DNA of 64,000 bases from Oscillospiraceae bacterium (GCA_015065455.1 SVQI01000009.1:1050-65049), one strand, 5' to 3'. Counted from the stretch's first letter, positions 1 through 63,894 are shown. Notes: generated by a model not told the origin, from the sequence alone. Translations and numbers: made by a program.

Positions 1-36
1 TATATATAACACCTTGCTGCTGAAAGGACATATATC

Positions 37-5193: not shown

Positions 5194-5216
5194 AATCTTA
5201 TTTAAACATACAAAAA

Positions 5217-5246
5217 TACTCCCTTAAGACAAGGGAGTATTTTTTT
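5217..5246 (+). terminator. rho-independent terminator
   Basis: Hairpin tactccctt-aagac-aagggagta followed by TTTTTTT. Confidence 0.8.
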
Positions 5247-5310
5247 GATGTAAATACGGACAGATAAAAAACACTTATACAATTTTATTATATATTATAA
5301 TAATACATCT

Positions 5311-5947
5311 AACGGCGGGAGCAAAATATACGCCCTACCAAATTAGGATTTGTTACCTATTTTGTGTATTCGATTGTCATTCTCGTTTCTGCCGCCACGG
5401 GATTCTTCGCTTCGCTAAAGAATGACAGCGTGGCGGCACCGTAAAGAATATCAAGCACACAGTTTTTCATAAGTGCCGTCCCCTACCAATTTAAATAATA
5501 CTATCTCAGCAAACCAGGGGGGTACCGAGGGAGGAACGCCCTCGGTCGTTTGCGGGGTAGGGGGTTACGGGGGTGGGGGAATCGAAACCCTCACCCCCGT
5601 ATGCCTTCTTTGGTTACTTTCTTGGCACGCAAGAAAGTAACATAAAAAAGAAAAGACAATATTATCTGTTTAAATTGTTTGCTTTTCTCTCCCTCCGTCA
5701 TTTTCTAACGAAAATGCCACCTCCCTCGTCAGATGGAGGTAAAAAGAGAGATTGTTTCGGGAAGCACACACTGTCAGGAGCTTCGCTCCCGAACCCACAC
5801 CAAAGGTGCTTTTTGAAAAAAGCTCCTTTGGAATCCGCAAAAACTTTATATAAAATAAGCATTAATTTTTTTATATTATTTTTTCAAAATAATATTTTAT
5901 ATGAGCACTTTTAAAAAAGTGCCCTCTTGACTCCCTCAAAACTTTTA
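5311..5947. repeat. mosaic hairpin repeat locus A (forward orientation)
   Basis: Shares long modules with loci at 12036, 22526, 30521, 40138, 49773 and 55081. Examples: gtcaggagcttcgctcccgaacccacac, ccttctttggttactttcttggcacgcaagaaagtaac, ctccctcgtcagatggag. Confidence 0.9.
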
Positions 5948-5988
5948 AAAAAATAAATTCCCAATATTATTTTAATATCGGGAATTTT
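5946..5988 (-). terminator. rho-independent terminator of murI
   Basis: On the minus strand, hairpin ttcccgatatt/aatattgggaa (one G-U pair) followed by a T-run. Confidence 0.65.
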
Positions 5989-5992
5989 TTGT

Positions 5993-6766
5993 TTATCTGT
6001 TAAGCAAAAAGTAGGTAAGATCCATTATTTCTTTTGTGCCTAATGTATTTATAATATGCAGTTCGCCTTTTTGAGTCTGGTCGTTGAGCATATCAATAAG
6101 CTCAAGCCTTCTCTTTGTTTCTCTTGCCGTACCGCTTCCTCCGTCAAATATGACTGCTTTGTGATCAAACGCCTTGCTTACCGCTTCTTTAATATGTGGA
6201 TAATGCGTACAGCCAAGAACCACCGAGTCTACTTTGAGATATCTGAAAGGAGCAAAAATTTCTTTCAAATGCGCGTCAAGCTCAGGTCCCTCAACTATAC
6301 CGCGTTCAATAAGCTTCACAAGCCCCGGGCAAGGCAAAGCTATAATATTTGCCTCGTTGTCGTATCTTCTGGCAAGCTCGTCAAACTTATCCTGCGACAA
6401 GGTAAGAGGTGTAGCCATAACTATAACAGTGGGGTGTATCTTATATAAAACAGCCGGTTTTACAGCAGGCTCAATTCCAATAATCGGAATATCAGGGTGC
6501 ATTTTTCTTAAAGTTTCAGCAGCAACACTCGTTGCCGTATTGCAGGCAATTACTATTGCTTTTGCTCCCTTTTCAAGCAATATTTCAGCATTTTTCTTTG
6601 TTAATTCCTTTATTTCCTCGGCACTTTTTGTCCCGTAAGGAGCATTGATAGAATCTCCGTAATACAAAAAATTTTCATTCGGCAATAGAGCCATAAGCTC
6701 TTTGAGAACGCTTATACCCCCGACTCCCGAGTCAAACACGGCAATAGGATCAGTTTTTTTCATCAA
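5993..6766 (-). CDS. murI: glutamate racemase
   Basis: 257 aa. Motifs FDSGVGG, IACNTATS and LGCTHYP, including both catalytic Cys motifs. Confidence 0.96.
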   Translation of the reverse strand: MMKKTDPIAVFDSGVGGISVLKELMALLPNENFLYYGDSINAPYGTKSAEEIKELTKKNAEILLEKGAKAIVIACNTATSVAAETLRKMHPDIPIIGIEPAVKPAVLYKIHPTVIVMATPLTLSQDKFDELARRYDNEANIIALPCPGLVKLIERGIVEGPELDAHLKEIFAPFRYLKVDSVVLGCTHYPHIKEAVSKAFDHKAVIFDGGSGTARETKRRLELIDMLNDQTQKGELHIINTLGTKEIMDLTYFLLNR

Positions 6767-11913: not shown

Positions 11914-11963
11914 TATCAGTTATATCCCTAATATAAGACCAACAAATTAAATGAGAAAAGAAA

Positions 11964-11998
11964 GCACCAAAGACTTTTTAAGTCTTTGGTGCTTTTTT
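11964..11998 (+). terminator. rho-independent terminator of the liv operon
   Basis: Hairpin gcaccaaagact-tttta-agtctttggtgc followed by TTTTTT. Confidence 0.85.
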
Positions 11999-12035
11999 GT
12001 AACAAAAATATAAAGTGTATATGTGAACAATAAAA

Positions 12036-12284
12036 GCAAGCTCTTTGCCTTGCTCTCTCGTCAGATGGAGCTAATAAATACACGATTTTGCGCGTAAAAA
12101 AGCACAAAAAATCAGGAGCTTCGCTCCCGAACCCTTGACCGAAGGCGCTTTTTAATAAAAGCCCCTTTGGAAGCCGCAAAAACTTTATAAAGATAATCAT
12201 TTATTTTTCTATATTATTTTTTCAAGAAAATATTTTATATGTGCATTTTTGAAAAAGCTCACTCTTGACTCCCCCAAAATTTCA
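12036..12284. repeat. mosaic hairpin repeat locus B (forward orientation, 3-prime modules only)
   Basis: Contains ctcgtcagatggagc, the hairpin caggagcttcgctcccgaaccc, the AT hairpin block tatattattttttcaag and cttgactcccccaaaa, all shared with the other loci. Confidence 0.85.
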
Positions 12285-12321
12285 AATAAAATAGCAGTTA
12301 TTATAAGTTGGTTTTTATAAC

Positions 12322-12354
12322 AAAAAACACCGCAGATTAAATAATCTGCGGTGT
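12322..12354 (-). terminator. rho-independent terminator (minus strand) after micro-ORF 1
   Basis: Hairpin acaccgcagatt-aaat-aatctgcggtgt with a T-run on the minus strand. Confidence 0.8.
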
Positions 12355-12382
12355 TCATATTTGCTATATTTCTAAAACCTTA

Positions 12383-12493
12383 TTATACATTATCCATAGG
12401 CATGGGCGGCATTTCGGGATCGCTCATTGTAATAATGTCTTTTTCTTCGAAGTTAATTACTTCTACTTTAGGTTCTTCAAAAATCATCTTCAT
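12383..12493 (-). CDS. conserved 36-aa micro-ORF downstream of the 1021-aa surface protein (not in the ORF track)
   Basis: AGGAGG sits 10 nt before the ATG. Translation MKMIFEEPKVEVINFEEKDIITMSDPEMPPMPMDNV. A paralogous copy lies at 15840..15950, with synonymous differences between the two. Confidence 0.6.
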   Translation of the reverse strand: MKMIFEEPKVEVINFEEKDIITMSDPEMPPMPMDNV

Positions 12494-12532
12494 GTTATCT
12501 ATTCCTCCTATCATATTATCGATAACAACATC

Positions 12533-15500
12533 TTACGCGATTGCGCTAGCTGCTGTAAAGTAATCGTACAAGGCATAAACAACATTCTTTGCTGTTTCAT
12601 AACCAGTCTGCTGTGATACTGTGTAAGCGTAGTTAAATACACTATAGTTTACAGTTACGTCGCCAACTGTTGTTACGATTGTCTTATCGAAGTCCTGAGG
12701 AAGAATGTCAGCTTCTTCAACATAGTATCCTAAATGGTTCTGTCCATCGAAGATTGTTGTGTCAGCACCGTCAGCTACTGTGAAGTAGTGTCTGATTGCA
12801 ACCTTGTCAAAGAGAACGATTGTTGAGTACTTATATGTGTAATCTGCTGATGCTCCGGGAACAACGCTTGCTCCTGTTGCATATGTTGCAAGTTCATTCT
12901 TTCTTTCAGCCTGAACAACTGTTGTGCTGTCGATCTTTCCGAAGTGCAACTGTGATAATTCACCATAGTTAAGAACTGCTTCTGCTATATCTGCATATTC
13001 AGGATTTTCTGTAGCCATCTGTTCAGCGTATGCTTCAAATGTTGTTGTGTATGTTCTTGTTTCAACACCATCTACAACAAGCTTAACGCTTACGTCAGTA
13101 GTCATTTCTGTTGCAAACAATTCAGCGCTAATCTTAACGATGTTGTTTGCATCAACCATAGCTGCAGTAACAACTGTTTCGTAAGTCTCATCACCTATTG
13201 TAAGAACATACTTAACTTTGCCTGCTGCAATAGCACTCTTTGTCAAGTCTGTTACTTTGTAATCGATGTTAAGAATTACATTGTTTTCAAGAGTACCGCT
13301 AACTACGTCAACTTCGCCGTAGGGGAATATTTCTACAACTTCATTTGCTGTAAATTCAGCATCGATCTTTGCAGGATCAATTGTTCCGTATGCATAGTAA
13401 ACAACCTTAGATGCGGGAGCTTCTGCAGATGTGTTACGTGTAGACTTGTATGTAATCTTGCCTACTGTACCACCCTGAAGGTTTATTGCCAAGTTACCGA
13501 TGCTGTCATAGTAACCTGCACCTGTAATAGCAATGATTTCGTCTACTGAACCACTCTTAACTGTGATAGAAACGTCGCCTTCAACGTATGAGTACTGTCT
13601 GTTCGCCTTAGGTGATACACCTGTTGCTTTAATCTTTTCAACATTAGCACCGTCGATAACGATTGTAGAATTACCGATAAGAGATGCACTCTTTGATGTG
13701 CTTACAGAGTGACCTGCACCTACGATATATCTCCAGCTACCTGCTTTAACTGTAATAACGGGATCTGCTTCGAGTTCTGCATCAAGACCGTTACGTGTTG
13801 TAGCAAAGATATTGGGGTATCTAGTACCTGCAACAGGAGAACCTGATGCATAGTTGTACGATGTTACGTTAACGTCATCTTCTACTGTAATGTTGTTTCC
13901 GTTAGCGTAGAATGAGAAGTTTGTAACGTACTGTTCACCTGAGTTGTTGCTGTTGTATCTGAACTCGATTGTGGTAGCATCAAATGTTGTGTCTCCACCG
14001 AGCCAGAGAGATGTTGAATCCCAAACGGAGTGATCCAAAACGAATGTTCCGCCTGTGATTTTTACTGCGCCTGTTTCAGGAAGCTTGAAGTCGCCTGCAT
14101 ACTTTCTTTCAAAAGCATCTGCGGCGTCAATAACCAATTCATCAACGATAACGATCTTACCGCCTTCAGCGCCGAGCTGTTCAAGTGCTCTGTACAAAGG
14201 ATGTGCTTTCGCAAGAGCATTGTTTGCAAATACCATCTTGCCTACGCTTACGTTTTCCTTCATCCAAGCAATAACGTCAGCGTATGCAGCATTTTCAAAC
14301 GTTGTACGTATTGTTGTACTACCGTTTGTAACTGTGTCGGTTACTGTACCGGGGCCCAAAGGACTTTCAGCAGAAGAACCGTCGCCTGTACCTGTTGAAG
14401 ATACGTAAATAACACCGGTTTCTATAATTTCATTAGCTGTAAATTCAGCTGCGATCTTTGCAAGGTCAATTGTTCCGTCTTTGTAGTAAATAACCTTAGA
14501 TGCGGGAGCTTCTGCAGATGTGTTACGTGTAGACTTGTATGTAATCTTGCCTACTGTACCACCCTGAAGGTTTATTGCCAAGTTACCGATGCTGTCATAG
14601 TAACCTGCACCTGTAATAGCAATGATTTCGTCTACTGAACCACTCTTAACTGTGATAGAAACGTCGCCTTCAACGTATGAGTACTGTCTGTTCGCCTTAG
14701 GTGATACACCTGTTGCTTTAATCTTTTCAACATTAGCACCGTCGATAACGATTGTAGAATTACCGATAAGAGATGCACTCTTTGATGTGCTTACAGAGTG
14801 ACCTGCACCTACGATATATCTCCAGCTACCTGCTTTAACTGTAATAACGGGATCTGCTTCGAGTTCTGCATCAAGACCGTTACGTGTTGTAGCAAAGATA
14901 TTGGGGTATCTAGTACCTGCAACAGGAGAACCTGATGCATAGTTGTACGATGTTACGTTAACGTCATCTTCTACTGTAATGTTGTTTCCGTTAGCGTAGA
15001 ATGAGAAGTTTGTAACGTACTGTTCACCTGAGTTGTTGCTGTTGTATCTGAACTCGATTGTGGTAGCATCAAATGTTGTGTCTCCACCGAGCCAGAGAGA
15101 TGTTGAATCCCAAACGGAGTGATCCAAAACGAATGTTCCACCTGTGATTGTTACTGCGCCTGTTTCAGGAAGCTTGAAGTCGCCTGCATACTTTCTTTCA
15201 AAAGCATCTGCTGCGTCGATAACCAATTCATCAACGATAACAATCCTACCGCCTTCAGCGCCGAGCTGTTCAAGCGCTCTGTACAAAGGATGTGCTTTCG
15301 CAAGAGCATTGTTTGCAAATACCATCTTGCCCACGCTTACGTTTTCCTTCATCCAAGCAATAACATCAGCGTATGCAGCATTTTCAAACGTTGTACGTGT
15401 TGTTGTACTACCGTTTGTAACTGTGTCGGTTACTGTACCGGGGCCCAAAGGACTCTGAGCAGAGGAACCGTCGCCTGTACCTGTTGATGATACGTAAATA

Positions 15501-15598
15501 ACATTTGTTTCATTAGCAGAAGCAAACATTACTGTACATGACACGATTACTGCAACGAGCAATAATGCAGGTACAAGAAATTTCATGAATTTTCTCAT
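12533..15598 (-). CDS. secreted repeat-containing surface protein, predicted beta-helix-like, with an internal 363-aa tandem duplication
   Basis: 1021 aa. Signal peptide MRKFMKFLVPALLLVAVIVSCTVMFASA. Two near-identical 363-aa modules plus a C-terminal domain of about 260 aa shared with 15989..18034. Confidence 0.85.
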   Translation of the reverse strand: MRKFMKFLVPALLLVAVIVSCTVMFASANETNVIYVSSTGTGDGSSAQSPLGPGTVTDTVTNGSTTTRTTFENAAYADVIAWMKENVSVGKMVFANNALAKAHPLYRALEQLGAEGGRIVIVDELVIDAADAFERKYAGDFKLPETGAVTITGGTFVLDHSVWDSTSLWLGGDTTFDATTIEFRYNSNNSGEQYVTNFSFYANGNNITVEDDVNVTSYNYASGSPVAGTRYPNIFATTRNGLDAELEADPVITVKAGSWRYIVGAGHSVSTSKSASLIGNSTIVIDGANVEKIKATGVSPKANRQYSYVEGDVSITVKSGSVDEIIAITGAGYYDSIGNLAINLQGGTVGKITYKSTRNTSAEAPASKVIYYKDGTIDLAKIAAEFTANEIIETGVIYVSSTGTGDGSSAESPLGPGTVTDTVTNGSTTIRTTFENAAYADVIAWMKENVSVGKMVFANNALAKAHPLYRALEQLGAEGGKIVIVDELVIDAADAFERKYAGDFKLPETGAVKITGGTFVLDHSVWDSTSLWLGGDTTFDATTIEFRYNSNNSGEQYVTNFSFYANGNNITVEDDVNVTSYNYASGSPVAGTRYPNIFATTRNGLDAELEADPVITVKAGSWRYIVGAGHSVSTSKSASLIGNSTIVIDGANVEKIKATGVSPKANRQYSYVEGDVSITVKSGSVDEIIAITGAGYYDSIGNLAINLQGGTVGKITYKSTRNTSAEAPASKVVYYAYGTIDPAKIDAEFTANEVVEIFPYGEVDVVSGTLENNVILNIDYKVTDLTKSAIAAGKVKYVLTIGDETYETVVTAAMVDANNIVKISAELFATEMTTDVSVKLVVDGVETRTYTTTFEAYAEQMATENPEYADIAEAVLNYGELSQLHFGKIDSTTVVQAERKNELATYATGASVVPGASADYTYKYSTIVLFDKVAIRHYFTVADGADTTIFDGQNHLGYYVEEADILPQDFDKTIVTTVGDVTVNYSVFNYAYTVSQQTGYETAKNVVYALYDYFTAASAIA
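13325..15502. repeat. in-frame tandem duplication, 2 x 1,089 bp
   Basis: Units are about 13325..14413 and 14414..15502. Long runs of DNA are identical at an offset of 1089 (for example 13403 vs 14492). The mirrored antisense track ORFs 14030..14398 and 15119..15487 also differ by exactly 1089. Confidence 0.95.
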
Positions 15599-15815: not shown

Positions 15816-15839
15816 TTATTGTTTTGTTTTTTACCTTAT

Positions 15840-15950
15840 TATACAACATCTATTCCCATGGGCGGCATTTCAGGATCGCTCATTGTGATAATGTCTTTTT
15901 CTTCGAAGTTAATTACTTCTACTTTAGGTTCTTCAAAACTCATCTTCATC
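15840..15950 (-). CDS. conserved 36-aa micro-ORF downstream of the 681-aa surface protein (not in the ORF track)
   Basis: AGGAGG sits 10 nt before the ATG. Translation MKMSFEEPKVEVINFEEKDIITMSDPEMPPMGIDVV. Paralog of 12383..12493. Confidence 0.6.
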
Positions 15951-15988: not shown

Positions 15989-18034
15989 TTACACAAGCGC
16001 GTCGGCTGCTTTATAATAATCATACAAAGCATAAACGATGTTCTTTGTAGTTGTAAACTTTTCCGATGTCTGTTGAGACACTAAATAAGCATAATTCATT
16101 ACGCTGTATTTTACTGTACATCCGTCAACCTCAACGGTCTGTGCATCAGCATATTCCTGAGGAAGAATATCGCTGATTTCGATATAATATCCTTTATCGT
16201 TATAACCGTCAAACATCGACGTATCCGCACCTTCTACTATACCGAAGTAATGTCTGATCGCGATCTTATCAAAAAGAACAAGTGACGAATAATTATACGT
16301 GTACTGTGTTGAAGCTCCACTGACAGATGCGCCTGTTTCGTACGCTGTAAGCTCGGTTTTTCTTTCAGGTTGATTTACCGTTGTGCTATTGATCGTTCCA
16401 AAGTGGAACTGTGACATTTGTCCATATTTAAGCACTGCCGCCGCTACTTCCGCATACTCAGGATTATCAAGTGCCATCTGCTCTGCGTACGCTTCAAACG
16501 TTGTTGTGTAAGTATCACATTCAACTTCACCAACATACAACGTACCGCTGACTTCAGCAGTCATTTCCGTACCGTAAAGAGTTGCCGGGAATCTGACGAC
16601 GTTATTTGCATCAATCATTTCTGCAGTAATTATATATTCCTCTTGAACTCTGTTACCAACCGCAAATGCATATTTAACAGTCTTTCCTGCCGCAATAGCA
16701 TCCTTTGTCGCCTGTGTAACTTTAAAATCAAGGTTAAGCTCAACGTTATTATTAAGTGTGCCGCTGACCATATCAACTTCACCGTAGATATTCTTTACGT
16801 TTACAGCTGTGAAGTTTCCACTGATCTCGGGAGCATTTTGAGCTTTTGTTACGTAGCACGTAACAACCGAAGACGTAGGTTCATATACACTTCCGTTTGT
16901 TGTGTTCTTGTAAACAATTTCACCGATCGTTGCAGTTTCGTGTGTGTTTATTGTCAACGTGCCGACAATACCTGCAGACGTTACTCCGTAAATTGAGCCG
17001 ATTGTACCGCCCGTAACGTTTACAGTTGCATTACCGTTAAGAATACTAAAATGTATAGGGTTCAGTTTTGAGCCTTGGTATGCAGAGGTTTTACCCGAGC
17101 ACCACAATTTTTCAATCGTACCGCCTGTAACGTTAATCGTTGCATTACCTCTGAGGTCTGCATCATAGGATGAACTACTAGAATATATACTATGTCCTGC
17201 CGCAGATACGTCAGTCCAATGTCCCGACTTAATGGTAATAATCGGATTTCCTGTTATTGCTGTATATTTAATTGACGTAGCATAGATAGAGGGGTATTCA
17301 TTACCCTCGACGCGATTTCCGGAAACGTAATCAAACGACGTTACGTCAACACCCTCGCCTATTGTAAGGTTGTGTCCGCCTGCAAGGAACGAAAAGTGAT
17401 GCGTCATAGTAGAACGGCTATAATTTGCATTATTACTAATGTGGATACCTGAATTATATCTGTTTTCTATGCCGATATTCTGAATTGTCGTATCACCGCT
17501 GAACTGAATATGAGTAGAGTTGTAAACAGTATGGTCCAAAATAAGCTTAGAATTTGCATTGTAACCTTCGATTACGATAGGTCCGGCAGAAGGAGTAATC
17601 ATCTTGCCTTCATATCCAATCTCGAAAGTAACAGCCGCATCAAGAGCGAGCTCGCCAACAACAACCACCTTACCACCTTCAGCTCCAAGCCGTTGAATAG
17701 CTTTATACAAAGGATGAGCTTTTGTGAGCGCGTTGTTTGCAAATTTAACAGTCGTAATCTTTCTTATATCATCACTCTTCAACCAGGTGATAACACTTTC
17801 GTACGATGCGTTGGAAAAACTCTTTGTTTTACTGGAATTGCTGGAATTCTTGTACGAAACAGAATCCGTCACCGTGCCAGGTCCCATAGGACTCTGAGCC
17901 GAAGAACCGTCGCCCGTACCGCTTTGCGATATGTAAATAACGTCAGTTTCAGCAGAAGCAAACATTACTGTGCATGACACAATCACTGCAATCAGCACCA
18001 AAGAAGGAATAAGAAACTTTATGAATTTTTTCAT
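15989..18034 (-). CDS. secreted surface protein, single-module paralog of 12533..15598
   Basis: 681 aa. Near-identical signal peptide (MKKFIKFLIPSLVLIAVIVSCTVMFASA). Shares the GDGSSAQSP motif, the HPLY.A...LGAEGG motif and a conserved C-terminal domain (TTTFEAYAEQMA..NPEYA, YALYDY). Confidence 0.85.
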   Translation of the reverse strand: MKKFIKFLIPSLVLIAVIVSCTVMFASAETDVIYISQSGTGDGSSAQSPMGPGTVTDSVSYKNSSNSSKTKSFSNASYESVITWLKSDDIRKITTVKFANNALTKAHPLYKAIQRLGAEGGKVVVVGELALDAAVTFEIGYEGKMITPSAGPIVIEGYNANSKLILDHTVYNSTHIQFSGDTTIQNIGIENRYNSGIHISNNANYSRSTMTHHFSFLAGGHNLTIGEGVDVTSFDYVSGNRVEGNEYPSIYATSIKYTAITGNPIITIKSGHWTDVSAAGHSIYSSSSSYDADLRGNATINVTGGTIEKLWCSGKTSAYQGSKLNPIHFSILNGNATVNVTGGTIGSIYGVTSAGIVGTLTINTHETATIGEIVYKNTTNGSVYEPTSSVVTCYVTKAQNAPEISGNFTAVNVKNIYGEVDMVSGTLNNNVELNLDFKVTQATKDAIAAGKTVKYAFAVGNRVQEEYIITAEMIDANNVVRFPATLYGTEMTAEVSGTLYVGEVECDTYTTTFEAYAEQMALDNPEYAEVAAAVLKYGQMSQFHFGTINSTTVNQPERKTELTAYETGASVSGASTQYTYNYSSLVLFDKIAIRHYFGIVEGADTSMFDGYNDKGYYIEISDILPQEYADAQTVEVDGCTVKYSVMNYAYLVSQQTSEKFTTTKNIVYALYDYYKAADALV

Positions 18035-21022: not shown

Positions 21023-21097
21023 GCCGATGTAGCACAGTGGTAGTGCAGCTGATTCGTAATCAGCAGGTCGTGGGTTCAATCCCCACCATCGGCTCCA
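21023..21097 (+). tRNA. tRNA-Thr (anticodon CGT), CCA encoded
   Basis: Hand-folded cloverleaf. Acceptor GCCGATG/CATCGGC, D arm GCAC-AGTGGTA-GTGC, anticodon arm GCTGA-TTCGTAA-TCAGC, T arm GTGGG-TTCAATC-CCCAC, then T-CCA. Confidence 0.9.
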
Positions 21098-22451: not shown

Positions 22452-22457
22452 CACAAA

Positions 22458-22492
22458 ACGGGCGGACAAACGAATCCGCCCGTATATTTTTA
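22458..22492 (+). terminator. rho-independent terminator of queH
   Basis: Hairpin acgggcgga-caaacga-atccgcccgt followed by a T-rich tail. Confidence 0.75.
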
Positions 22493-22525
22493 GAATTATA
22501 ACAAACCTCTCCTCTTGTGTACATT

Positions 22526-23210
22526 GGAAATGAATCACACCGTGATGTCATTCACTCCGTCGCCACCGCTTCGCTACCTCGTCAGATGAGGACTTATAAT
22601 AACACTGGGGCGAAAACGAACTCATCCGTCACACCGCGTTTTATATTTGTAAAAAAATGAAGTTTGTTAGCGGTGTGCCACCTTCTCTCACCAGAGAAGG
22701 CACAGAGTATAGCCTTTGTCTTTTTGTTTTTATTTTGTTGGTCTTATAATTTTATAAAATCATTTTATTTATTACATCGAATTGCACCAATTTTGCACCT
22801 TCTCTGGTGAGAGAAGGTGGCGTGCCGCCAATATATTTAAGTATATTTTGTCATATAACGCGGCGCGACGGATGAGTTCGTCTATCCTCCCAAAAATACA
22901 CTAACTTAAACCTCCATCTGAGGAGGGAGGTGGCTCGGCAATAGGTAAATATAGAATATTTTTATTCTTTGTTGCCGAGACGGAGGGAGAGATATATGTT
23001 AAATATCTGATTGCAATATTGTTTGTTTAAACCGTTTGTTCTTCTCTCCCTCAGTCTCGCAGTCGCTCGCCAGCTCCCTCCTCAGATGGAGCCGAGAAAT
23101 ACGCGCTTCGCGCGTAAAAAGTACATACTGTCAGCTTCTTCGCTCCCGAACCCACACAAAAGGAGCTTTTGGAAAAAAGCTCCTTTGGAATCCGCAAAAA
23201 CTTTATAAAA
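22526..23210. repeat. mosaic hairpin repeat locus C (mixed orientations)
   Basis: Contains a palindrome related to aatgacatcac-ggt-gtgatgtcatt, an inverted duplication of about 264 bp (22617..22880), one reverse copy of the core (ctccatctgaggagggag) and one forward copy with the full 3-prime block. Confidence 0.9.
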
Positions 23211-23226
23211 CTACCCTTATTACATT

Positions 23227-23260
23227 AAAAAATGCTCTCTGAAATTCAGAGAGCATTTTT
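23227..23260 (-). terminator. terminator hairpin downstream of 23281..24759
   Basis: Hairpin aatgctctctg-aaatt-cagagagcatt flanked by an A-run and a T-run. Confidence 0.8.
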
Positions 23261-23280
23261 ATTATACAATTGTAGTTTAA

Positions 23281-24759
23281 TTATTTAGCTGCTTTTTTCT
23301 TCTTCAAAACGATTACTACAACAACTGCTGCGATTGCAACTACTGCAACTGCTGCGATAATAACGATAGCTGTGGGGAATTCTCCGCCTTCTTCGCCGTT
23401 ATCTGTGGGAGCGGGTGTTGTTGCAGGTTTCTGTGTTGCGGGCTTCTGTGTTGCAGGAGCGTCTGTCGCAGGTGCATCTGTCGCAGGTGCATCCGTTACA
23501 GGAGCGTCTGTTACAGGAGCGTCTGTTTCGGGGGGAACAGCTGCAAGAAGGTCAGCCAATTCCTGTTCTGTTACGCCTGCGGGCAACTTAACTTCTTTGA
23601 ATGTTTCCATTACGTCAAGAATGTATGCCATCTGAATCTTTTCGCCCTTGAAACCGGACAAGTCAAGAACAGATACTGCAGGAGCATTGTTTGTATGTTC
23701 AGGCTGTACTTCTGCAATTGAGAACAAATCTTTGAATATACCGTCGTTAATCTTGATTGTTACTCTACCGTCAGCATTTGTCAAACCTGTAGGACCAACA
23801 CCGAAGATATCACATTCAGTATAGGTACCGCCGTTAATTGTAATTGTTACGTTACCGCCGAAATCAAGCTTTGTTGATGAACACGAACCGGTAATCATAC
23901 CAAGAACTCTTGTTGTTCCTTCAAGTGTAATGTTTACTGTTGAGTTCTTAACAGGGTAATTTGCTGTAATACCCCAGTTTGCGCCCCAGATTCTGTTAAA
24001 CGTACCACCCTTTACAACGAGTGTGGGGTTTTCGTTTGATCTCTTCTGGTATCTGTGGCCCATATTAAGGCTGAGGTAGTGTGCTGCAACGCCTTCCTGG
24101 TTTTCATCATTAGGAACACACTGGAAACCGGGACCGATAAGTGTAGCGTATTCATCGAACCAGAACATTCTTTCTTCTTCTGTTACAACTGTGATGTCAT
24201 CCCAAATAGATGAACCCAACACACCAACGTGAGCAGGTTTTTCGATAATCAATTTAGCGTCAGCTGTCTGACGGTAGTCAACACCGTTGTATACGGATGT
24301 AAACTTAATAACTTTGTTGCTCTTACCGAATTCTGCAGTAAGTACGTCGCGGTTTGTTGCAGAGCTACCGTACGATTCGTTAATACCAAGTGTTACAGGA
24401 CCAACAAAAACGATTGTACCGCCTGTTTCCTTCAACTCTTCAGTTGCCTGATAAAATGCTGTCTGCAAGTATTTTTTCGGGCTGCTTGCTGTAGCATCGT
24501 AGTTGGGATGCTCTGTGGGTCTGAGAGGGTTATCAGGAGTTTTACCGGTACCATCACCTTCAATTGTGCCAGTCATAGCGCCTGTTACAGGATCTCTTTC
24601 AGCATCTTTGATGAAGATTACAGCATCACTGCTGGGTTTGAGAGTGTTAGGATCAAAACCAGCAGGTGTCTTAGCTGCTGCAGATGCACTGAACACAAAC
24701 AATGATGCAAACAAAGTTACAACGAGAGCCATAACCAAAAGTTTTGCAAAGTTTTTCAT
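23281..24759 (-). CDS. membrane-anchored surface protein, beta-helix-like paralog with a Pro/Thr-rich stalk
   Basis: 492 aa. Signal peptide, EGDGTGKTPDNPLRP motif, repeated rung-like G..N.T..GG segments, TDAP/TQKPA stalk, and a C-terminal TM helix followed by KKKKAAK. Confidence 0.8.
   Translation of the reverse strand: MKNFAKLLVMALVVTLFASLFVFSASAAAKTPAGFDPNTLKPSSDAVIFIKDAERDPVTGAMTGTIEGDGTGKTPDNPLRPTEHPNYDATASSPKKYLQTAFYQATEELKETGGTIVFVGPVTLGINESYGSSATNRDVLTAEFGKSNKVIKFTSVYNGVDYRQTADAKLIIEKPAHVGVLGSSIWDDITVVTEEERMFWFDEYATLIGPGFQCVPNDENQEGVAAHYLSLNMGHRYQKRSNENPTLVVKGGTFNRIWGANWGITANYPVKNSTVNITLEGTTRVLGMITGSCSSTKLDFGGNVTITINGGTYTECDIFGVGPTGLTNADGRVTIKINDGIFKDLFSIAEVQPEHTNNAPAVSVLDLSGFKGEKIQMAYILDVMETFKEVKLPAGVTEQELADLLAAVPPETDAPVTDAPVTDAPATDAPATDAPATQKPATQKPATTPAPTDNGEEGGEFPTAIVIIAAVAVVAIAAVVVVIVLKKKKAAK
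23419..23530. repeat. 15-bp tandem repeats encoding the (T-D-A-P-V/A)n and (T-Q-K-P-A)n stalk
   Basis: The protein reads TDAPVTDAPVTDAPATDAPATDAPATQKPATQKPA. The DNA shows gcaggtgcatctgtc-type 15-mers repeated head to tail. Confidence 0.85.
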
Positions 24760-25013
24760 AAGTCATTTCTCCTTATATATTTTTATTTTGGTAATGATTA
24801 TTCTTATTCTAAAAAAACACTACCGTTCCTTTACTGAGTAATTATACCATTTATCCCCTACTATTTCAAGTGGATTTTTAAATATTTGTATACTCTGACA
24901 AAATAAAATTGGTATTTTTTTATAAAATGAATAAAGATGAATTTATTTTCAAATCTTTGGTCAAAAAGTGTACATAATTAAGCAAAATATTAGTTACACA
25001 AGCATATAAAAAC

Positions 25014-30428: not shown

Positions 30429-30447
30429 AAAAATATATAAAATAATT

Positions 30448-30474
30448 GGCAGAGAAAATTTTCTCTGCCTTTTT
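30448..30474 (+). terminator. rho-independent terminator
   Basis: Hairpin ggcagagaaaa/ttttctctgcc followed by TTTTT. Confidence 0.85.
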
Positions 30475-30520
30475 CATTTTAAAAAAGCGATCAAGAAAAA
30501 TAATTGTTATAAACGGGACG

Positions 30521-31245
30521 TCGAAGAAGGGATTCCCCGAAACGCACGAAGTAAGTTTTTGGGAGTTCTCGTGTGCGCCGTCCCCTACCAAGTTAGGATT
30601 TATTATTTATTTAAATAATTTGTTCTTCTCTCCCTCAGTCAACTTCGTTGACAGCTCCCTCGTCAGATGGAGCTAAAAAGTTAGACTTTTTCAAAAAAAC
30701 GGCGGGAGCAAAATATACGCCCTAAAAATTTAGGATTTATTAACTCGCAATTCTTCTCAAACGGAGCGGCGGTGACATCGCCCCCTACAAAACAGGCAAT
30801 ACCGTCTCAGCAAACGATGGGGGTGCAAAGGGGGTAATCCCCCTTTGTCGTTTGCGGGGTAGGGGTTTATAGGGGCGGGGGAATCGAAACCCCTGCCCCT
30901 ATATGCCTTCTTTGGTTACTTTCTTGGCACGCAAGAAAGTAACGTAAAAAAAGAAAAAGACAATATTATCTGTTTAAAACGTTTATCTTTCTCTCCCTCA
31001 GTCATTTTCTAACGAAAATGCCAGCTCCCTCCTCAGATGGAGCCGAGAAATACGCGCTTCGCGCGTAAAAAAGCACAAAATGTCAGGAGCTTCGCTCCCG
31101 AACCCACACAAGAGGTGCACTTTTGAAAAAGTGCCCTCTTGACTCCCTCAAAACTTTTAATATAATTTTTTATATTATTTTTTAAAATATTATTTTATAT
31201 GTGCACTTTTGAAAAAGTGCCCTCTTGACTCCCCCAAAACTTTAC
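30521..31245. repeat. mosaic hairpin repeat locus D (forward orientation, most complete copy)
   Basis: Contains two copies of the framed core (30620..30672 and 30980..31042), the GC-rich three-hairpin module (30808..30943) and two copies of the gtgcacttttgaaaaagtgccctcttgactccc block. Confidence 0.92.
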
Positions 31246-31269
31246 CATAAAAAAATTTATAGACGCAAA

Positions 31270-31297
31270 TATCCACCTGTATGTCAGGTGGATATTG
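31270..31297. terminator. strong hairpin between locus D and the lacZ-type gene
   Basis: Hairpin aatatccacctg-tatgt-caggtggatatt. A T-run follows directly on the plus strand and about 14 nt away on the minus strand. Confidence 0.6.
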
Positions 31298-31300
31298 TTT

Positions 31301-40060: not shown

Positions 40061-40077
40061 TCTGAATACAAAATTTA

Positions 40078-40109
40078 CCCTCTCGAAAAATCGGGAGGGT
40101 TTTTGTTTT
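40078..40109 (+). terminator. rho-independent terminator
   Basis: Hairpin ccctctcga-aaaa-tcgggaggg followed by TTTTTGTTTT. Confidence 0.8.
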
Positions 40110-40137
40110 GCATTTAATTACACTTGCACAGATACAA

Positions 40138-40790
40138 ACTCATTCGTCGCGCCGCTTCGCTACCTTCTCAGATGGAGCTAAAAAGTTAGATTATTTCAAA
40201 AAACGGCGGAAGCAAGATATACGCCCCACAAGCTAAACAATACCATCTCTGCAAACACGGGGAAACCGAAGGGGGTGTCCCCCTCGGTCGTTTGGTGGTT
40301 GGGGGTCGAGGGGGAGGAGGAATCGAAACCTCCGTCCCCTTGTGCCTTCTTTGGTTACTTTCTTGGCACGCAAGAAAGTAACGTAAAAAAGAAAAGACAA
40401 TATTATCTAATTAAAACGTTAATTCTTCTCTCCCTCAGTCATTTTCTAACGAAAATGCCAGCGTCTACTGCGGTTCGGTCACGGCTCGGCTCTACCAGTG
40501 AACCCCCAAGCTTTACTTCGTGCAGCTCGGGGAACCCCTAACCAGTCCACCGGACTTTTATTCACTCCCTCGCCGCCGCTTCGCTACCTCGTCAGATGGA
40601 GCCGAGAATTACGCGCTTCGCGCGTAAAAAAGGCACAGAATGTCAGGAGCTTTGCTCCCAAACCCACACAAAAGGAGCGCTTTTAAAAAAGCGCCCTCTT
40701 GACTCCCCCAAAACCTTTAGTAAAAAATTTTTAAATGCTCTTTTTGAAAAACACTCCTTTGGAAACCGCAAAAAATTTAATAAAACAACA
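40138..40790. repeat. mosaic hairpin repeat locus E (forward orientation, with nested extra modules)
   Basis: Module order matches locus D, but the framed core is split by about 150 bp of extra sequence (about 40452..40584). The GC-rich module lies at 40249..40382. Confidence 0.9.
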
Positions 40791-40805
40791 ATTTTTGTTT
40801 GTCAC

Positions 40806-40843
40806 ACAAAAAAGCGATGTATGAAATCATACATCGCTTTTTA
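40806..40843 (-). terminator. rho-independent terminator of the aminotransferase gene
   Basis: Hairpin agcgatgtatga-aa-tcatacatcgct flanked by an A-run and a T-run. Confidence 0.8.
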
Positions 40844-40867
40844 TTATATACGTGTTCCGATTTATAA

Positions 40868-49731: not shown

Positions 49732-49738
49732 TAATACA

Positions 49739-49772
49739 ACACGGGTGGATAAAAAATCCACCCGTGTTTTTT
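49739..49772 (+). terminator. rho-independent terminator of rnr
   Basis: Hairpin acacgggtggat-aaaaa-atccacccgtgt followed by TTTTTT. Confidence 0.9.
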
Positions 49773-50150
49773 AAGTTTTTGCGGAGTCCAGAGGGGCTTG
49801 CTCCCGCCGTTTTTTAGAAGAACTAACTTTTTTAGCTCCATCTGATGAGGTAGCGAAGCGGCGGCGAGGGAGTGAATGACATCACGGTGTGATGTCATTT
49901 CCGAGCCGTGACCGAACCGCAGTAGACGCTGTCAACGAAGTTGACTGAGGGAGAGAAGAAATGGAGTAACACAACAATAAGTAATTAAAGCTGTGAAAAA
50001 TTGAACACCCTCTCTCCTTTCTCCTTGGCTAAAAATCGGATTATTCATTATATCAAATTCATAAGAAGAATAATCCGATTTTCTTAACGCCAATTCCTCC
50101 TTCCTCGTCAGAGGAAGGCGAGGTTGTAATGCACGCTTCGCTACGTTACA
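49773..50150. repeat. mosaic hairpin repeat locus F (reverse orientation)
   Basis: Reverse complement of modules seen in loci D and E: ctccatctgatgaggtagcgaagcggcggcgagggagtgaat, ccgagccgtgaccgaaccgcagtagacg, gtcaacgaagttgactgagggagagaagaa. It also has a 13-bp-stem hairpin at about 50034..50088. Confidence 0.88.
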
Positions 50151-50210
50151 AAAAGAAGTAGCATTACCTAATCTTGTACGGGGGAATTCTTTTGTCTGCC
50201 CGTTATACAA

Positions 50211-50249
50211 AATAAGAAAACTGCCAAAAACTTTGGCAGTTTTCTTATT
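50211..50249 (-). terminator. rho-independent terminator of the ABC exporter operon
   Basis: 18-bp-stem hairpin aataagaaaactgccaaa/tttggcagttttcttatt immediately after the stop codon. Confidence 0.85.
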
Positions 50250-52091
50250 TTAGTGTTTTGAAGCCTTTTCGTTTTCGTATTTTTTTGCCTGAATCTTAAA
50301 CATTTCGGCATACTTTCCGTTTTTATTTATAAGCTCCTCGTGATTTCCTTCTTCTATTATCTTTCCGTTGTCAAACATATATATTCTGTCTGCCATACGT
50401 GTTGTGGAAAGTCTATGAGATATAAATATTACAGTCTTATCTTTTGTTTTTTCTGTTATAGCCTGATTCAATTTATACTCTGCAATTGGGTCAAGTGCGC
50501 TCGACGGTTCATCAAGTATCATAAGATCGCATTTCTTTGCAAATACTCTTGCAATAGCAATCTTCTGCTGTTCTCCGCCCGAAAGCTCCGTTCCTTCTTT
50601 GCTGTATTCTTTTGTAAGAATTGTATCAAGTCCGTTTTTGAGCTTTTGTTCAATCGGGAAGTCTGCAATTTCCAGAGCTTCCTTGGCTGTCATATAGTCA
50701 GACTCATTTTCCACCGTATCACCAAGCACATTTTCGGCAACGGTTGCCGCAAACAGCTTGTGATCCTGAAATACTGCACCTATCTTATTCCTGTACGAAG
50801 AAAGATCATATTCCTTTATATCTGTTCCATTATATAAAACAACACCTGATGTAACGTCATACAAACGCATAATAACCTTTATCAATGTTGTTTTACCCGC
50901 GCCGTTGTATCCTACAAAGGCAATTTTTTCGCCCTTGTTTATTTTAAGGTTCACGTTATCAATAACGTCATCTTCACCGTTATATGAGAATTTTACGTCT
51001 ACAAGTTCAAGACTCTCAAAGTCGTTTGCCGGTATAATTCCCGACACGACCTTAGGCTCGTAGTTGAGGAACTTTTTAAACTTTTCAACATAAAGGCTAT
51101 GCTCGTTAAATCTTGTTACAAAATACGTTATGCTTGTCAGTCTGTCATAAAGGTTGAATACAGCCGTTACGCCTACCGAAAATGACCCTAACGATACGTT
51201 TGGGTTTACAACATACTGAACCACAAGATATCCCATAACGCCAAACTCGAGAAGCTTATTTGTAAGTAACGAAGAAACAACGTTCAGAGGCACAATTTTC
51301 TTTGCAAATCTTTTAATCAGAGATACCTTGCTTTCTAAAACAGCAGTATACTCCTCTTCAAGATGCTCACTTATATTACCCTGTCTGATTTCTTTTGCAT
51401 ACTCGGCAAGGTAAAATACCCTCTTAATATAGTCGCCTTTTCTTATTATCTTTTGGTTTTCCTGCTGTTTAGCATAATTTATCTTATTTCTGAGCATACC
51501 AAACAAAAGATTTACAACGGATACCGTACAACAAATAAGGGCAACAAGCTTATCCATTGACCACAATATTGAAAGCACTCCAACGCTGGACAATATTCCG
51601 GCTAAAAAGTTCTCAAAATCTATCATCATCGACCATACACGGCCGTCAGACTCTCTTATCGCCCACACAAAATCATTATAGAACTCGGGATTGTCATAAC
51701 AGCTTTGGTCAAGAGAACGGGCTTTCATATAAAGTTCGCCCTGCATTCCCTCCTGAAGCTTGAGTTGTATGCGATAAATATAGACGTTCCAGAACCATTT
51801 GTTCAAAATGTTAACGACCACTATCAAAAGCGCAAATACACCTGTAACAATAGCTATTTCTTTAAATGCTTTTCCTGTTTCAATTGCATCAAATATATAT
51901 TTAATGTATACTATCGACGATAAAACCTGCCAGACTGCATTTGTTGTTGCCACAAAAACAGTAATCCAGAAAAACATCGGGGTATACTTAAAGACATATT
52001 TAAACATAAAAGCGGTATTTTTTACCGTAAGAAATATGTTGCTTTTTTCTTTTTTGGGGGTATTAAGCTTCTTACTTCTTTTAAAAATCAT
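50250..52091 (-). CDS. ABC exporter, fused permease/ATP-binding subunit (type 1 exporter half-transporter)
   Basis: 613 aa. Six-TM N-terminal domain, Walker A GYNGAGKTT, signature LSGGEQQKIAIAR, Walker B LMILDEPSSALD. Confidence 0.92.
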   Translation of the reverse strand: MIFKRSKKLNTPKKEKSNIFLTVKNTAFMFKYVFKYTPMFFWITVFVATTNAVWQVLSSIVYIKYIFDAIETGKAFKEIAIVTGVFALLIVVVNILNKWFWNVYIYRIQLKLQEGMQGELYMKARSLDQSCYDNPEFYNDFVWAIRESDGRVWSMMIDFENFLAGILSSVGVLSILWSMDKLVALICCTVSVVNLLFGMLRNKINYAKQQENQKIIRKGDYIKRVFYLAEYAKEIRQGNISEHLEEEYTAVLESKVSLIKRFAKKIVPLNVVSSLLTNKLLEFGVMGYLVVQYVVNPNVSLGSFSVGVTAVFNLYDRLTSITYFVTRFNEHSLYVEKFKKFLNYEPKVVSGIIPANDFESLELVDVKFSYNGEDDVIDNVNLKINKGEKIAFVGYNGAGKTTLIKVIMRLYDVTSGVVLYNGTDIKEYDLSSYRNKIGAVFQDHKLFAATVAENVLGDTVENESDYMTAKEALEIADFPIEQKLKNGLDTILTKEYSKEGTELSGGEQQKIAIARVFAKKCDLMILDEPSSALDPIAEYKLNQAITEKTKDKTVIFISHRLSTTRMADRIYMFDNGKIIEEGNHEELINKNGKYAEMFKIQAKKYENEKASKH

Positions 52092-53893: not shown

Positions 53894-53894
53894 A

Positions 53895-54509
53895 TTACCT
53901 CTTAGATGATATCTTCTTCATAACTGCATCGGTATCGTACACGTTTATGTTTACAGGAATAATAATTTCCTCTTCACCGGTAATTGAAAGATAATTACGT
54001 TTTACCTCACCTATTGCAGTTGTATACGTTTTTTCCAAAATCTTATGTTCGCACCCGACGTTTAGTTTGTACTCGGATACTGTAAAACTTTCTTCAAAAA
54101 GATCAATAGTATATTTTTTTATACTAAAAGTCTCTTTTTTAAACACAAATGCCGTTACACAGTAGAACGCTGTTCTAACTTTTTTATCCTTACCCTTTTT
54201 TATATGTCCACTCTTACCGATTATGTACTCCTTAAGGGTATGCTCGGTTTCTTCAATATTGTTTATTAACATGATTCTTTTAACTTCACTGTCAAAATCA
54301 TCTTCTGTTACTCTTGAAGAGTGAGTAAACACCCATCCGCATCCGCCGATTATCAAAAACGGAAATCCGAAAAAGCCAACTCCAAGGTATAAAAATATCC
54401 ACAGTGCAACCAATACCGCGCCTACTCCCGTCATTACCATAAATACGGTTTCAATGCCCTTTGTGTCTTTTTGTTCAAAATAAGCTTTAATTGTTTTTCT
54501 TTCTTTCAT
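53895..54509 (-). CDS. hypothetical membrane protein (2 TM helices plus a soluble domain), first gene of the exporter operon
   Basis: 204 aa. No recognisable motif. Its stop lies 1 nt before the ABC gene start. Confidence 0.6.
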   Translation of the reverse strand: MKERKTIKAYFEQKDTKGIETVFMVMTGVGAVLVALWIFLYLGVGFFGFPFLIIGGCGWVFTHSSRVTEDDFDSEVKRIMLINNIEETEHTLKEYIIGKSGHIKKGKDKKVRTAFYCVTAFVFKKETFSIKKYTIDLFEESFTVSEYKLNVGCEHKILEKTYTTAIGEVKRNYLSITGEEEIIIPVNINVYDTDAVMKKISSKR

Positions 54510-54863
54510 AATTGTTACTCCTGTCTTTAAATGCTGTTTAATTACTTAATAATGCTATGGTTTTCGGAGTTACTCACCTGCCTTTCTTAAGTTAATACTT
54601 TAGTTTGCCGAATCTAAGTCGTATACTTACCTTAAAAGGTATCAATATTCGCCCAGAAGCAATAATTGAAAGTGTAGCATACAACGTCAAAAAAATCAAT
54701 AAACTATTAGTTGAATAGTTTAAACAAACAGTAAATTGTATAAAAACTTTTACGACCGCATTTCAGCAAGCAAAAGAATAAGTCTTATTTTATACTACTT
54801 TATCGCATTTGTCAAGAATTTATCGTATATTATTATATAATTTGATTAAGGAGGGATAAAAAA

Positions 54864-55010
54864 ATGAAACCTTTAAAGGAAAAAATAAGCATAACATTAG
54901 ATAGTGATATTCTTGATGAAGTTCGCAAGAAAGCAGACGAGGACGAGCGTTCACTGTCGCAATTTATTAATCTCATTTTGAAGCAATATCTTATTACTAT
55001 AAAAAACTAA
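54864..55010 (+). CDS. ribbon-helix-helix (CopG/Arc-like) small DNA-binding protein, 48 aa (not in the ORF track)
   Basis: GGAGGG RBS. Translation MKPLKEKISITLDSDILDEVRKKADEDERSLSQFINLILKQYLITIKN fits an RHH beta-strand plus two helices (RS.S.FI....L). Confidence 0.65.
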   Translation: MKPLKEKISITLDSDILDEVRKKADEDERSLSQFINLILKQYLITIKN

Positions 55011-55014
55011 AAAC

Positions 55015-63893: not shown

Positions 63894-63894
63894 T

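Follow-up and report, generated by a model that had tools for sequence, protein, structure and literature searches.

Mosaic clusters of REP/BIME-like hairpin repeats between convergent genes of an Oscillospiraceae bacterium

The subject of this study is a family of interspersed repeats in a 64,000-nucleotide stretch of DNA from an Oscillospiraceae bacterium (GCA_015065455.1 SVQI01000009.1:1050-65049; hereafter the window). The repeats form seven clusters, loci A to G, and all seven lie in gaps between convergently transcribed genes. In architecture the family resembles the repetitive extragenic palindromic (REP) units and bacterial interspersed mosaic elements (BIMEs), and it is thus an already known kind of interspersed repeat. 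The explanation that we favor, and regard as rather probable, is that the clusters are non-autonomous, hairpin-rich extragenic repeats of REP/BIME-type organization, which were gained beside the terminators of convergent genes and persist where they are tolerated. Particular here are the strict rule of location on this contig, the position of the clusters outside both flanking terminators, and the unusually large and diverse mosaics. The family is abundant (eight clusters per 81 kb). Its clusters break metagenome assemblies, coincide with synteny breakpoints between sister species, and can donate a terminator to a gene. To our knowledge, the interspersed repeats of uncultured gut Clostridia are little charted.

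Distribution of the repeat clusters among gene gaps

Repeats were detected as exact-seed repeats, by blastn-short comparison of the seven gaps with the whole window (E≤1e-3), and with seven nhmmer module profiles (E≤1). Across the whole window, all cross-matches at E<0.1 were confined to the seven gaps listed here, and the sole nhmmer match outside them was insignificant (E=0.2, at 35556).

Locus A, 5194-5992: gap between a 49-aa open reading frame (ORF) and a murI-like gene
Locus B, 11914-12376: gap between a livF-like gene and a micro-ORF
Locus C, 22452-23280: gap between queH and a 492-aa gene (surface protein in the original prediction)
Locus D, 30429-31300: gap between a rodA/ftsW-like gene and lacZ
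Locus E, 40061-40867: gap between a malK-like ABC ATPase gene and a DegT-type aminotransferase gene
Locus F, 49732-50249: gap between rnr and an ABC exporter gene
Locus G, 55011-55630: gap between a 48-aa ribbon-helix-helix (RHH) gene and a sleB-like gene

The clusters measure 0.3-0.8 kb. The names that the original prediction had given to the flanking genes were borne out by Pfam (Asp/Glu racemase, LivF-type ATPase, QueH, FtsW/RodA, GH2 LacZ, MalK-type ATPase, DegT aminotransferase, RNase R, ABC exporter, RHH, and SleB-like). A curated gene list gave 10 convergent, 35 co-directional, and 9 divergent junctions in the window. Repeats occupied 7/10 of the convergent junctions versus 0/35 and 0/9 of the others (Fisher p = 6.8e-7), so that the claim of seven real loci restricted to convergent gaps holds for the window. 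Restricting the count to gaps of at least 100 bp gave 7/7 convergent versus 0/14 others (p = 8.6e-6). Under a length-aware null that scatters seven insertions randomly over the repeat-free intergenic DNA, the probability that every one lands in a convergent gap is p = 1.5e-4. The three remaining convergent junctions had been described as too short or as holding terminators only; they indeed measure 5 bp, 1 bp, and 98 bp, the last with two terminators (63797-63894), and none carries repeats. At the first, a tRNA-Thr gene (CGT; 21023-21097) ends 5 bp from the stop of a convergent ygjV-like gene, which is too tight for a terminator. Two of the modules described below, M_a and M_b, illustrate the excess of copies in the window: 12 copies of the M_a core were found versus 0.09 expected, and 4 copies of M_b versus 0 expected.

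The same contig was extended by 9.4 kb leftward and 8.1 kb rightward, so that ~81 kb of the genome were covered in all. The only new convergent gap of the extended contig (L160:15694-16390, between an iron-repressor gene on the plus strand and a GH2 gene on the minus strand) was, as the rule predicted out of sample, found to hold an eighth cluster, and its modules follow the order seen in the window. For window and extensions together, 8/11 convergent gaps carry repeats versus 0/61 other gaps (p = 1.4e-8). The left extension, in which there is no convergent gap, gave no significant module match, not even in a 1048-bp co-directional gap; one weak profile match (E=0.004) lies inside an ORF. That gap follows an IS3-family transposase gene (HTH_Tnp_1, rve; L159:6521-7753) located ~2.9 kb left of the window start, and upstream of this gene stands an island-looking block of genes without known function (DUF5677, a methyltransferase).

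Two further observations were discarded. The motif GTAGGGG at 24855-24861, in a co-directional gap, was rejected as a repeat module since it is part of a promoter-like site. GC skew was uninformative as a guide to a replication-strand bias of module orientation, as the skew tracks gene orientation.

Modules and terminators of the clusters

In a multi-locus alignment the loci were collinear: each is a mosaic assembled from some ten hairpin modules, and individual blocks may be missing. Most modules within one locus share one orientation; locus F has the module order of the other loci, inverted.

Locus A, 5311-5954 (+): GTAG-foot hairpins, long hairpin, 14-bp hairpin (5566-5601), M_b (5594-5652), M_a (5683-5741), D1 (5758-5862), AT spacer, and M_c (5880-5954)
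Locus B, 12044-12300 (+): right half of M_a, CGCGC hairpin, D1, AT spacer, and M_c
Locus C, left part, 22526-22937 (no strand): imperfect palindrome (~400 bp) that carries an M_a-type arm at either end; inverted repeats I4, I18, and I23
Locus C, right part, 22957-23223 (+): M_a (23039-23094), CGCGC hairpin, and D1/M_c
Locus D, 30514-31253 (+): fullest mosaic, with M_a (30623-30675 and 30986-31045), M_b (30896-30954), D1 (31065-31171), and two M_c
Locus E, 40140-40792 (+): M_a split by an extra segment of ~130 nt, M_x (40460-40582)
Locus F, 49767-50200 (-): inverted repeats I1-I7
Locus G, 55081-55585 (+): found by repeat search, alignment, and profiles

The footed-hairpin module consists of a GC hairpin followed by CCCCTACCAAATTAGGATTT, which on the opposite strand gives a GT[A/G]G foot beside the hairpin; foot-to-foot pairs of the form CCCCTAC...GTAGGGG are present at 5480/5557 and 30782/30859. 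The long-hairpin module, GCAAACG...CGTTTGC, is followed by GGGGTAGGGG and a 14-bp hairpin. M_b is GCCTTCTTTG-GTTACTTTCTTGgcacgCAAGAAAGTAAC; its four window copies are 92-95% alike over 59 nt and share an invariant 22-nt core, TTCTTTGGTTACTTTCTTGGCA (4/4). Further recurrent modules are the CGCGCTTCGCGCG hairpin, the 105-nt unit D1 with AGGAGCTTCGCTCC, and M_c, a hairpin followed by TTGGAAnCCGCAAAAACTTT or CTCTTGACTCCCCCAAAACTTT that often occurs twice, around an AT-rich spacer. The predicted folds are far stronger than those of shuffled sequences (z = -7.7 for 30800-31070; z = -10.3 for the ~400-bp palindrome of locus C, folded as DNA). In most modules the hairpins are followed by A-runs, not T-runs.

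M_a is a unit of two hairpins. A pattern scan of the window and of related loci in other genomes gave 71 matches, 63 of them distinct, of which 53 were aligned. The consensus is TCTCTCCCTC-N-[hairpin 1]-A-[G/C]CTCCCTC-NTCA-GATGGAG[C/G], with flanks that are invariant in the 53 copies. Hairpin 1 has 48 different sequences in the 53 copies, and 50/53 keep at least 5 bp (mean z = -4.4). In hairpin 2, the closing pair covaries (G-C in 34 copies versus C-G in 19), and the second pair changes from U-A to C-G in three copies. Because the pairing of hairpin 1 is kept despite 48 sequences and hairpin 2 covaries, the hairpins of M_a are under structural constraint, as single-stranded DNA or as RNA. As a candidate for a new family of motifs, be it DNA or RNA, M_a is well defined. 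Its reverse strand was considered as a hammerhead ribozyme and rejected: CUGAnGAG is enclosed in a 10-nt loop without a GAAA or stem II after it, and Rfam was negative too.

M_a exists in a short and a long form, the latter with an extra 75-130 nt (GTCTACTGCGGTTCGGTCACGGCTCGG...CGCCGCCGCTTCGC) at one fixed point between the hairpins. The extra segment is located at 40460-40582 and 49854-49927 (-) in the window, at L157:8472-8568, and at L160:16018-16094. At the orthologous locus A, M_a is short in the window and long in a sister species. The two forms suggest either site-specific insertion into M_a or precise deletion.

The terminator-like sites listed next were taken from a consensus scan or from direct reading of the sequence. 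Such sites were about twice as common as in shuffles, and the scan placed the strongest of them at the borders given by the original prediction.

5212-5246 (+): hairpin and T-run after the 49-aa ORF / ParC-like operon, left border of locus A (scan and reading); ortholog in the sister species at L157:8067-8097
5955-5987 (-): terminator of the murI-like gene, 15 pairs and a minus-strand T-run
11961-11998 (+): terminator after the livF-like gene (reading and scan)
12325-12356 (-): terminator of the micro-ORF / surface-protein operon (scan)
22458-22492 (+): hairpin and T-run after queH; a repeat module of degenerate REP type rather than an ancestral terminator
23227-23260 (no strand): ancestral bidirectional terminator, common to queH and the 492-aa gene; its ortholog is the sole hairpin of the 58-bp gap of the sister species
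30448-30474 (+): rodA/ftsW-like terminator, ancestral (scan); ortholog in L153
31268-31296 (-): lacZ terminator, ancestral; ortholog in L153 ~10 nt from the rodA terminator
40077-40109 (+): malK-like ATPase terminator (scan); similar hairpin in L151
40806-40843 (-): DegT-type aminotransferase terminator (direct reading)
49738-49772 (+): rnr terminator (scan)
50209-50251 (-): ABC exporter operon terminator, 20 pairs (scan)
55015-55045 (+): terminator after the 48-aa RHH gene (scan)
55597-55616 (-): sole candidate for a sleB-like terminator, a weak hairpin of 5-6 bp with a T-run (reading; below the scan criteria)

Hairpin and T-run borders were thus found as predicted on the plus side of all seven loci and on the minus side of loci A to F. 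Two finer points were also right: locus G is without a convincing minus-side terminator, with a weak hairpin alone at 55597-55616, and the hairpin at 31268-31296 is weaker on the minus strand, the scan scoring the plus strand better. The original prediction went further and had the plus-strand gene's terminator come first, with repeats only after it. This order fails at locus C, whose left hairpin belongs to the repeats and came in together with the insert, and it is not kept at the eighth locus either, where a repeat hairpin stands directly after the stop codon.

Lineage-specific gain, module turnover, and occurrence in a phage

The host has been detected in metagenomes of animal faeces and goat gut, with a depth of ~40x in some faecal samples. 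The window has a G+C content of 40%, and the host possesses sporulation genes (SpoIIR, SleB-like) and an RNase R that is 90% identical to a protein named "MAG: Ruminococcaceae/Oscillospiraceae bacterium" (MAG, metagenome-assembled genome). A sister species (RodA 88%, LivK 94%, and RNase R 90% identical) is syntenic along most of the window. Its rodA/lacZ gap, corresponding to locus D, is 89 bp long and contains two orthologous terminators ~10 nt apart, which are separated by ~780 bp in the window. Its queH gap, corresponding to locus C, is 58 bp long with a single bidirectional terminator orthologous to 23227-23260; the insert of the window was placed between the queH stop codon and this right-hand terminator. 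As these two gaps of the sister species, 58 and 89 bp long, contain nothing but terminators, ~0.78 kb were gained between or beside pre-existing terminators. Similarly, the malK/degT gap of locus E measures 160 bp in a relative farther removed (RNase R 79% identical), where it has two terminators and no repeats. Such pairs of filled and empty sites are a clean natural experiment on landing sites relative to terminators. At the left end of locus C, the 23-nt hairpin GGGCGGATTCGTTTGTCCGCCCG (22458-22483) is identical to a GTAG-footed hairpin of the sister locus A (L157:8112-8138), with the foot mutated, and is absent from the queH gap of the sister species. Judged from sequence, a repeat-module hairpin is here co-opted as the predicted terminator of queH.

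At loci F and G, the gene order of the sister species is rnr, a 43-bp bidirectional terminator, a 204-aa gene, and sleB. Both clusters are absent, as are the two ABC exporter genes and the RHH gene. Compared with L147, the window interval 49732-55630 has two extra blocks, one made up of locus F and the two ABC exporter genes and the other of a 354-bp spacer, the 48-aa RHH/CopG gene, and locus G. A further contig, L118, encodes a 100% identical RNase R; it leaves the path of the window inside locus F (~49960) and runs via other modules (5375-6207) to rnfC/rnfD. Since the F and G blocks are missing in the sister species and L118 diverges inside locus F, the clusters mark rearrangement points. 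The divergence of L118 is either a real strain rearrangement via repeats or a chimeric join.

Could the clusters themselves be an artefact of assembly or binning, that is, collapsed repeats or chimeric joins in a metagenome assembly? The departure of L118 inside locus F and the breaking of Logan contigs at the repeats speak in that direction. We nevertheless regard an artefact as highly improbable. The window is identical (100%) to two independently assembled metagenome contigs of the Joint Genome Institute (L116 and L117) across the 8.1 kb compared, which span locus F; the flanking proteins were found on at least 24 contigs; and homologous clusters are present at loci A and B of the sister species. 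Metagenome read depth on the modules was 6-50x that of the flanks. Read mapping on metagenome contigs gave no clean empty-site alleles. One read joint, 22481>23181, was considered as an empty allele and discarded, as one side was only 24 nt long and it probably came from another locus.

Loci A and B are filled in both species. At locus A there is a common skeleton with module indels (for instance, the M_a of the sister species is split by a segment of ~100 nt, as in loci E and F), and at locus B the modules differ between sister and window. Relatives of the left part of locus C are present in L118 and L157. Because A and B are filled in both species with different modules, turnover is rapid and the same gaps are used repeatedly.

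These comparisons bear on the idea that the clusters serve the host, as insulators or back-up bidirectional terminators, as sites for gyrase or a nucleoid protein that ease positive supercoils between convergent genes, a role already proposed for BIMEs, or as small RNA genes transcribed from promoter-like M_c. The extreme structure and the invariant motifs of M_a would fit such a function, as would the module hairpin that serves as predicted queH terminator; in addition, E. coli REPs have been published as dual regulators in 3' untranslated regions. According to the original prediction, any transcription of the loci would require promoters within them. Promoter-like hexamers occur inside the loci, and one such site (TTGACT-16-TATAAT, 31139-31166) is followed by the plus-strand terminator at 31268-31296. 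The -10 element of the promoter-like sites lies, however, in non-conserved flank, the sister species has the same genes intact without clusters at C, D, and the rnr junction, and the module content of A and B differs between the species. A function selected by the host therefore appears quite unlikely to us.

A search of other genomes with a 14-base pattern returned 115 loci, ~80% of them chance matches, and ~21 true relatives were kept after BLAST. M_a was present in MAGs labelled Acutalibacteraceae, Ruminococcaceae, Oscillospiraceae, Pumilibacteraceae, Clostridiaceae, and others. The M_a-bearing gaps of other Clostridia genomes comprised 10 convergent, 17 co-directional, and 1 divergent gap, an enrichment of convergent gaps over the background of 15% (p = 0.006). 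In the co-directional gaps, 13 copies were in sense and 6 in antisense orientation, which is not decisive. Elsewhere, an inverted M_a-like partner often accompanies M_a, resulting in palindromes like those of MITEs (miniature inverted-repeat transposable elements). The convergent-only rule of the original prediction is therefore valid on this contig but not as a property of the repeat family, whose M_a copies in other genomes are mostly co-directional and also occur in phage. Because other genomes place M_a in co-directional gaps as well, the rule is better described as a bias to gene 3' ends.

The phage in question is temperate (L162:1-14397 and L161; IMG/VR). Five M_a copies are located between its early genes, all in gene direction and shortly upstream of a gene, and each is preceded by the GTGG-footed hairpin GCGTTGCtttgGCAACGC. 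The phage genes include a CI/S24 repressor, a rolling-circle Rep with REP_ORF2-G2P domain, SSB, PAPS reductase, a thymidylate-synthase-like protein, dATP/dGTP pyrophosphohydrolase, and terminase. Carriage by phage is a plausible route to the cross-family conservation of M_a, and transfer by temperate phage would explain near-identical M_a across several families of Clostridia. M_b was absent from IMG/VR, and locus D had no match in the GenBank plasmid and phage collections.

A more specific proposal, which we consider unlikely, is that the GTAG-footed hairpins and M_a (TCTCTCCCTC - variable hairpin - CTCCCTCnTCAGATGGAG) are substrates of an enzyme acting on single-stranded DNA, either a host HUH enzyme like the REP-associated tyrosine transposases (RAYTs) or a phage rolling-circle Rep, and that they are shuttled by phage across families of Oscillospirales and targeted to terminators; M_a might alternatively be a conserved cis-acting RNA. 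If the enzyme version were true, Clostridia would possess a system of REP/RAYT type that targets terminators.

Terminator targeting may also be considered by itself; the original prediction had offered it alongside strong selection against insertion elsewhere, and both readings are viable. A mobilizing enzyme could recognize terminator hairpins or T-tracts, or the single-stranded or supercoiled DNA of convergent zones, and insert just downstream. The ancestral targets in the sister species are tiny (~10 nt between the terminators at D, and ~10 nt from the queH stop to the A/T-run of the terminator at C), a module of locus F abuts the T-run of the rnr terminator, and all convergent gaps of at least ~100 bp bar one are filled versus 0/15 long non-convergent gaps. 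Insertion sequence (IS) elements that target REPs are parallels, as are class C group II introns, whose insertion follows terminators. On the other side, the first module stands anywhere between 0 and 65 nt from the terminator, no common junction sequence or duplication was found, and the convergent gap 63797-63894 is empty in spite of its two terminators. Furthermore, other genomes carry M_a in co-directional gaps, where it occurs in both orientations and at 44-700 nt from the upstream stop. Active targeting is accordingly possible in our view, though doubtful.

Relation to known repeats and proposed origin

A REP is characterized by GTAG or GTGG 0-2 nt 5' of a hairpin whose basal stem, 7-20 bp long, is fully paired (PMC6006769). 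In the family studied here, a short palindromic unit recurs in many copies dispersed outside genes, and GTAGGGG is enriched in the window loci (6/9 matches in 7% of the sequence). On the opposite strand, M_a of type 2 carries GTGG at the foot of hairpin 1. Units of canonical REP form (GTAG-GGGCGxxx-loop-xxxCGCCC, with perfect stems of 7-9 bp and covariation in the upper stem) were found in the sister species and at many M_a-bearing loci. A strict scan of the window loci gave no GT[A/G]G-footed hairpin with a perfect stem, and the window's footed hairpins showed little fold strength (z roughly between -0.3 and -1). As the footed copies of the window are degenerate, without a perfect stem and with weak folds, the family is filed as REP/BIME-like and not as proven REP. 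BIME-type organization is evident in the mosaic of palindromic units in both orientations with conserved linkers and a common module order.

The resemblance to the REPs and BIMEs of Enterobacteria and Pseudomonas, which are mobilized by RAYT/TnpA_REP, extends to several traits. The units are extragenic, GC-rich, and palindromic, some with a GT[A/G]G foot; they are joined with conserved linkers in mosaics in both orientations; the mosaics are hotspots of rearrangement and insertion; and there is a bias to convergent and tandem gaps, with divergent gaps nearly avoided. E. coli REPs are ~60% convergent, 40% tandem, and 1% divergent. Unlike those systems, the present host is a Firmicute (Oscillospirales), the GT[A/G]G-footed hairpins of the window are short or imperfect, and M_a, M_b, and D1/M_c have no GTAG foot. 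Moreover, the clusters lie outside the flanking terminators and not inside 3' untranslated regions, and no RAYT gene was seen within the ~81 kb of genome covered. REPs have been described as species specific (PMC6006769), whereas M_a is conserved across families.

The BOX, RUP, and SPRITE repeats and IS elements of S. pneumoniae are over-represented between convergent genes and were read as parasitic DNA that is tolerated downstream of genes (Croucher et al. 2011, PMC3049150). Because the bias has been published for REP/BIME, BOX, RUP, SPRITE, and IS elements, the location rule is an instance of a known bias. The three pneumococcal repeats share with the present family a Firmicute host, small modular (BOX A/B/C-like) or terminator-like (SPRITE) repeats, convergent over-representation, a reading as non-autonomous parasites tolerated downstream, and occasional co-option as terminators. 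A unit formed by a hairpin and T-tract at a gene 3' end, as in SPRITE, was seen here in one copy (22458-22492) and arguably in the D1 hairpin on the minus strand. The sequences are unrelated, the present clusters are much larger (0.3-0.8 kb with about ten module types), and the repeats are exclusive to convergent gaps along 81 kb of contig, unlike the pneumococcal repeats, which are merely enriched there.

MITEs and palindromic elements such as Correia/NEMIS, ERIC, and bcr1 are matched by the left part of locus C and by the M_a pairs elsewhere, which are long and imperfectly palindromic, their terminal inverted repeats being TTTCTCTCC / GGAGAGAAA. Inverted-repeat arms are limited to these; most window loci are directional mosaics, and neither a target-site duplication nor a cognate transposase was found, unlike in MITEs. 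The nearby IS3-family element (L159:6521-7753) has no sequence in common with the modules. The copies in a temperate phage are reminiscent of MITEs common to phages and hosts (bioRxiv 10.1101/2024.01.18.576219).

Searches against known RNA and repeat families were negative. Among the Rfam 15 covariance models, which include hammerhead and other ribozymes, group II introns, and the Clostridiales-1..4 motifs, only tRNA-Thr reached the gathering score. A permissive Rfam search of loci D and E gave best matches far below threshold (e.g., Clostridiales-2 with 17 bits versus 58.6). No match to the repeat family was found in the Rfam scans or in the literature searched. Class C bacterial group II introns insert after intrinsic terminators, as Robart and colleagues are said to have reported in 2007. 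In the present clusters new DNA likewise lies immediately downstream of terminator hairpins, but they have no intron RNA domains (Rfam negative) and no reverse transcriptase ORF.

In the explanation by tolerated REP/BIME-type repeats, copies would spread by insertion and/or by recombination (gene conversion) between copies, and later modules may accrete at gaps that already contain repeats. Large clusters would persist only where promoters and operon-internal spacers are untouched, and insertions elsewhere would be removed by selection. The permissive place in this genome would be the terminator-bounded dead zone between convergent genes.

Several observations weigh against this explanation. 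Pure tolerance does not obviously account for the empty co-directional gaps of at least 100 bp, of which there are seven in the window in addition to the one of 1048 bp, and the family uses co-directional gaps in other genomes yet none here. No transposase or RAYT-type gene was found in the window; the 20 repeat-adjacent ORFs checked at other loci were all ordinary or housekeeping genes, with no Y1 transposase among them. Locus alignment and filled/empty comparisons permitted no target-site duplication or sharp element ends to be defined. Lastly, the invariance of the M_a flanks across families suggests sequence-specific recognition or function over neutral junk.

A few neighboring features were recorded in passing. 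Two paralogous secreted surface-protein genes (12533-15598 and 15989-18034) are each followed, 18-39 bp downstream, by a conserved micro-ORF of 36-43 aa (...MKMxFEEPKVEVINFEEKDIITMSDPEMPPM...) at 12383-12514 (-) and 15839-15949 (-); it was also called in the sister species (L157:15220-15333). The micro-ORF has no Pfam match and might encode a small secreted or modified peptide. The first of the two genes, which encodes 1021 aa, contains an internal 1089-bp tandem duplication (13330-15520) with copies that are 96% identical, whereas its paralog at 15989-18034 has one copy of this segment. The 492-aa gene bordering locus C carries in its 3' part a 15-nt tandem repeat of ~7 copies (TGTTGCAGGAGCGTC-like, 23419-23527). 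At 62146-62906, a 60-aa ORF overlaps the start of a Zeta_toxin-domain gene (PF06414) by 4 bp, and the two are likely an epsilon/zeta-type toxin-antitoxin pair.

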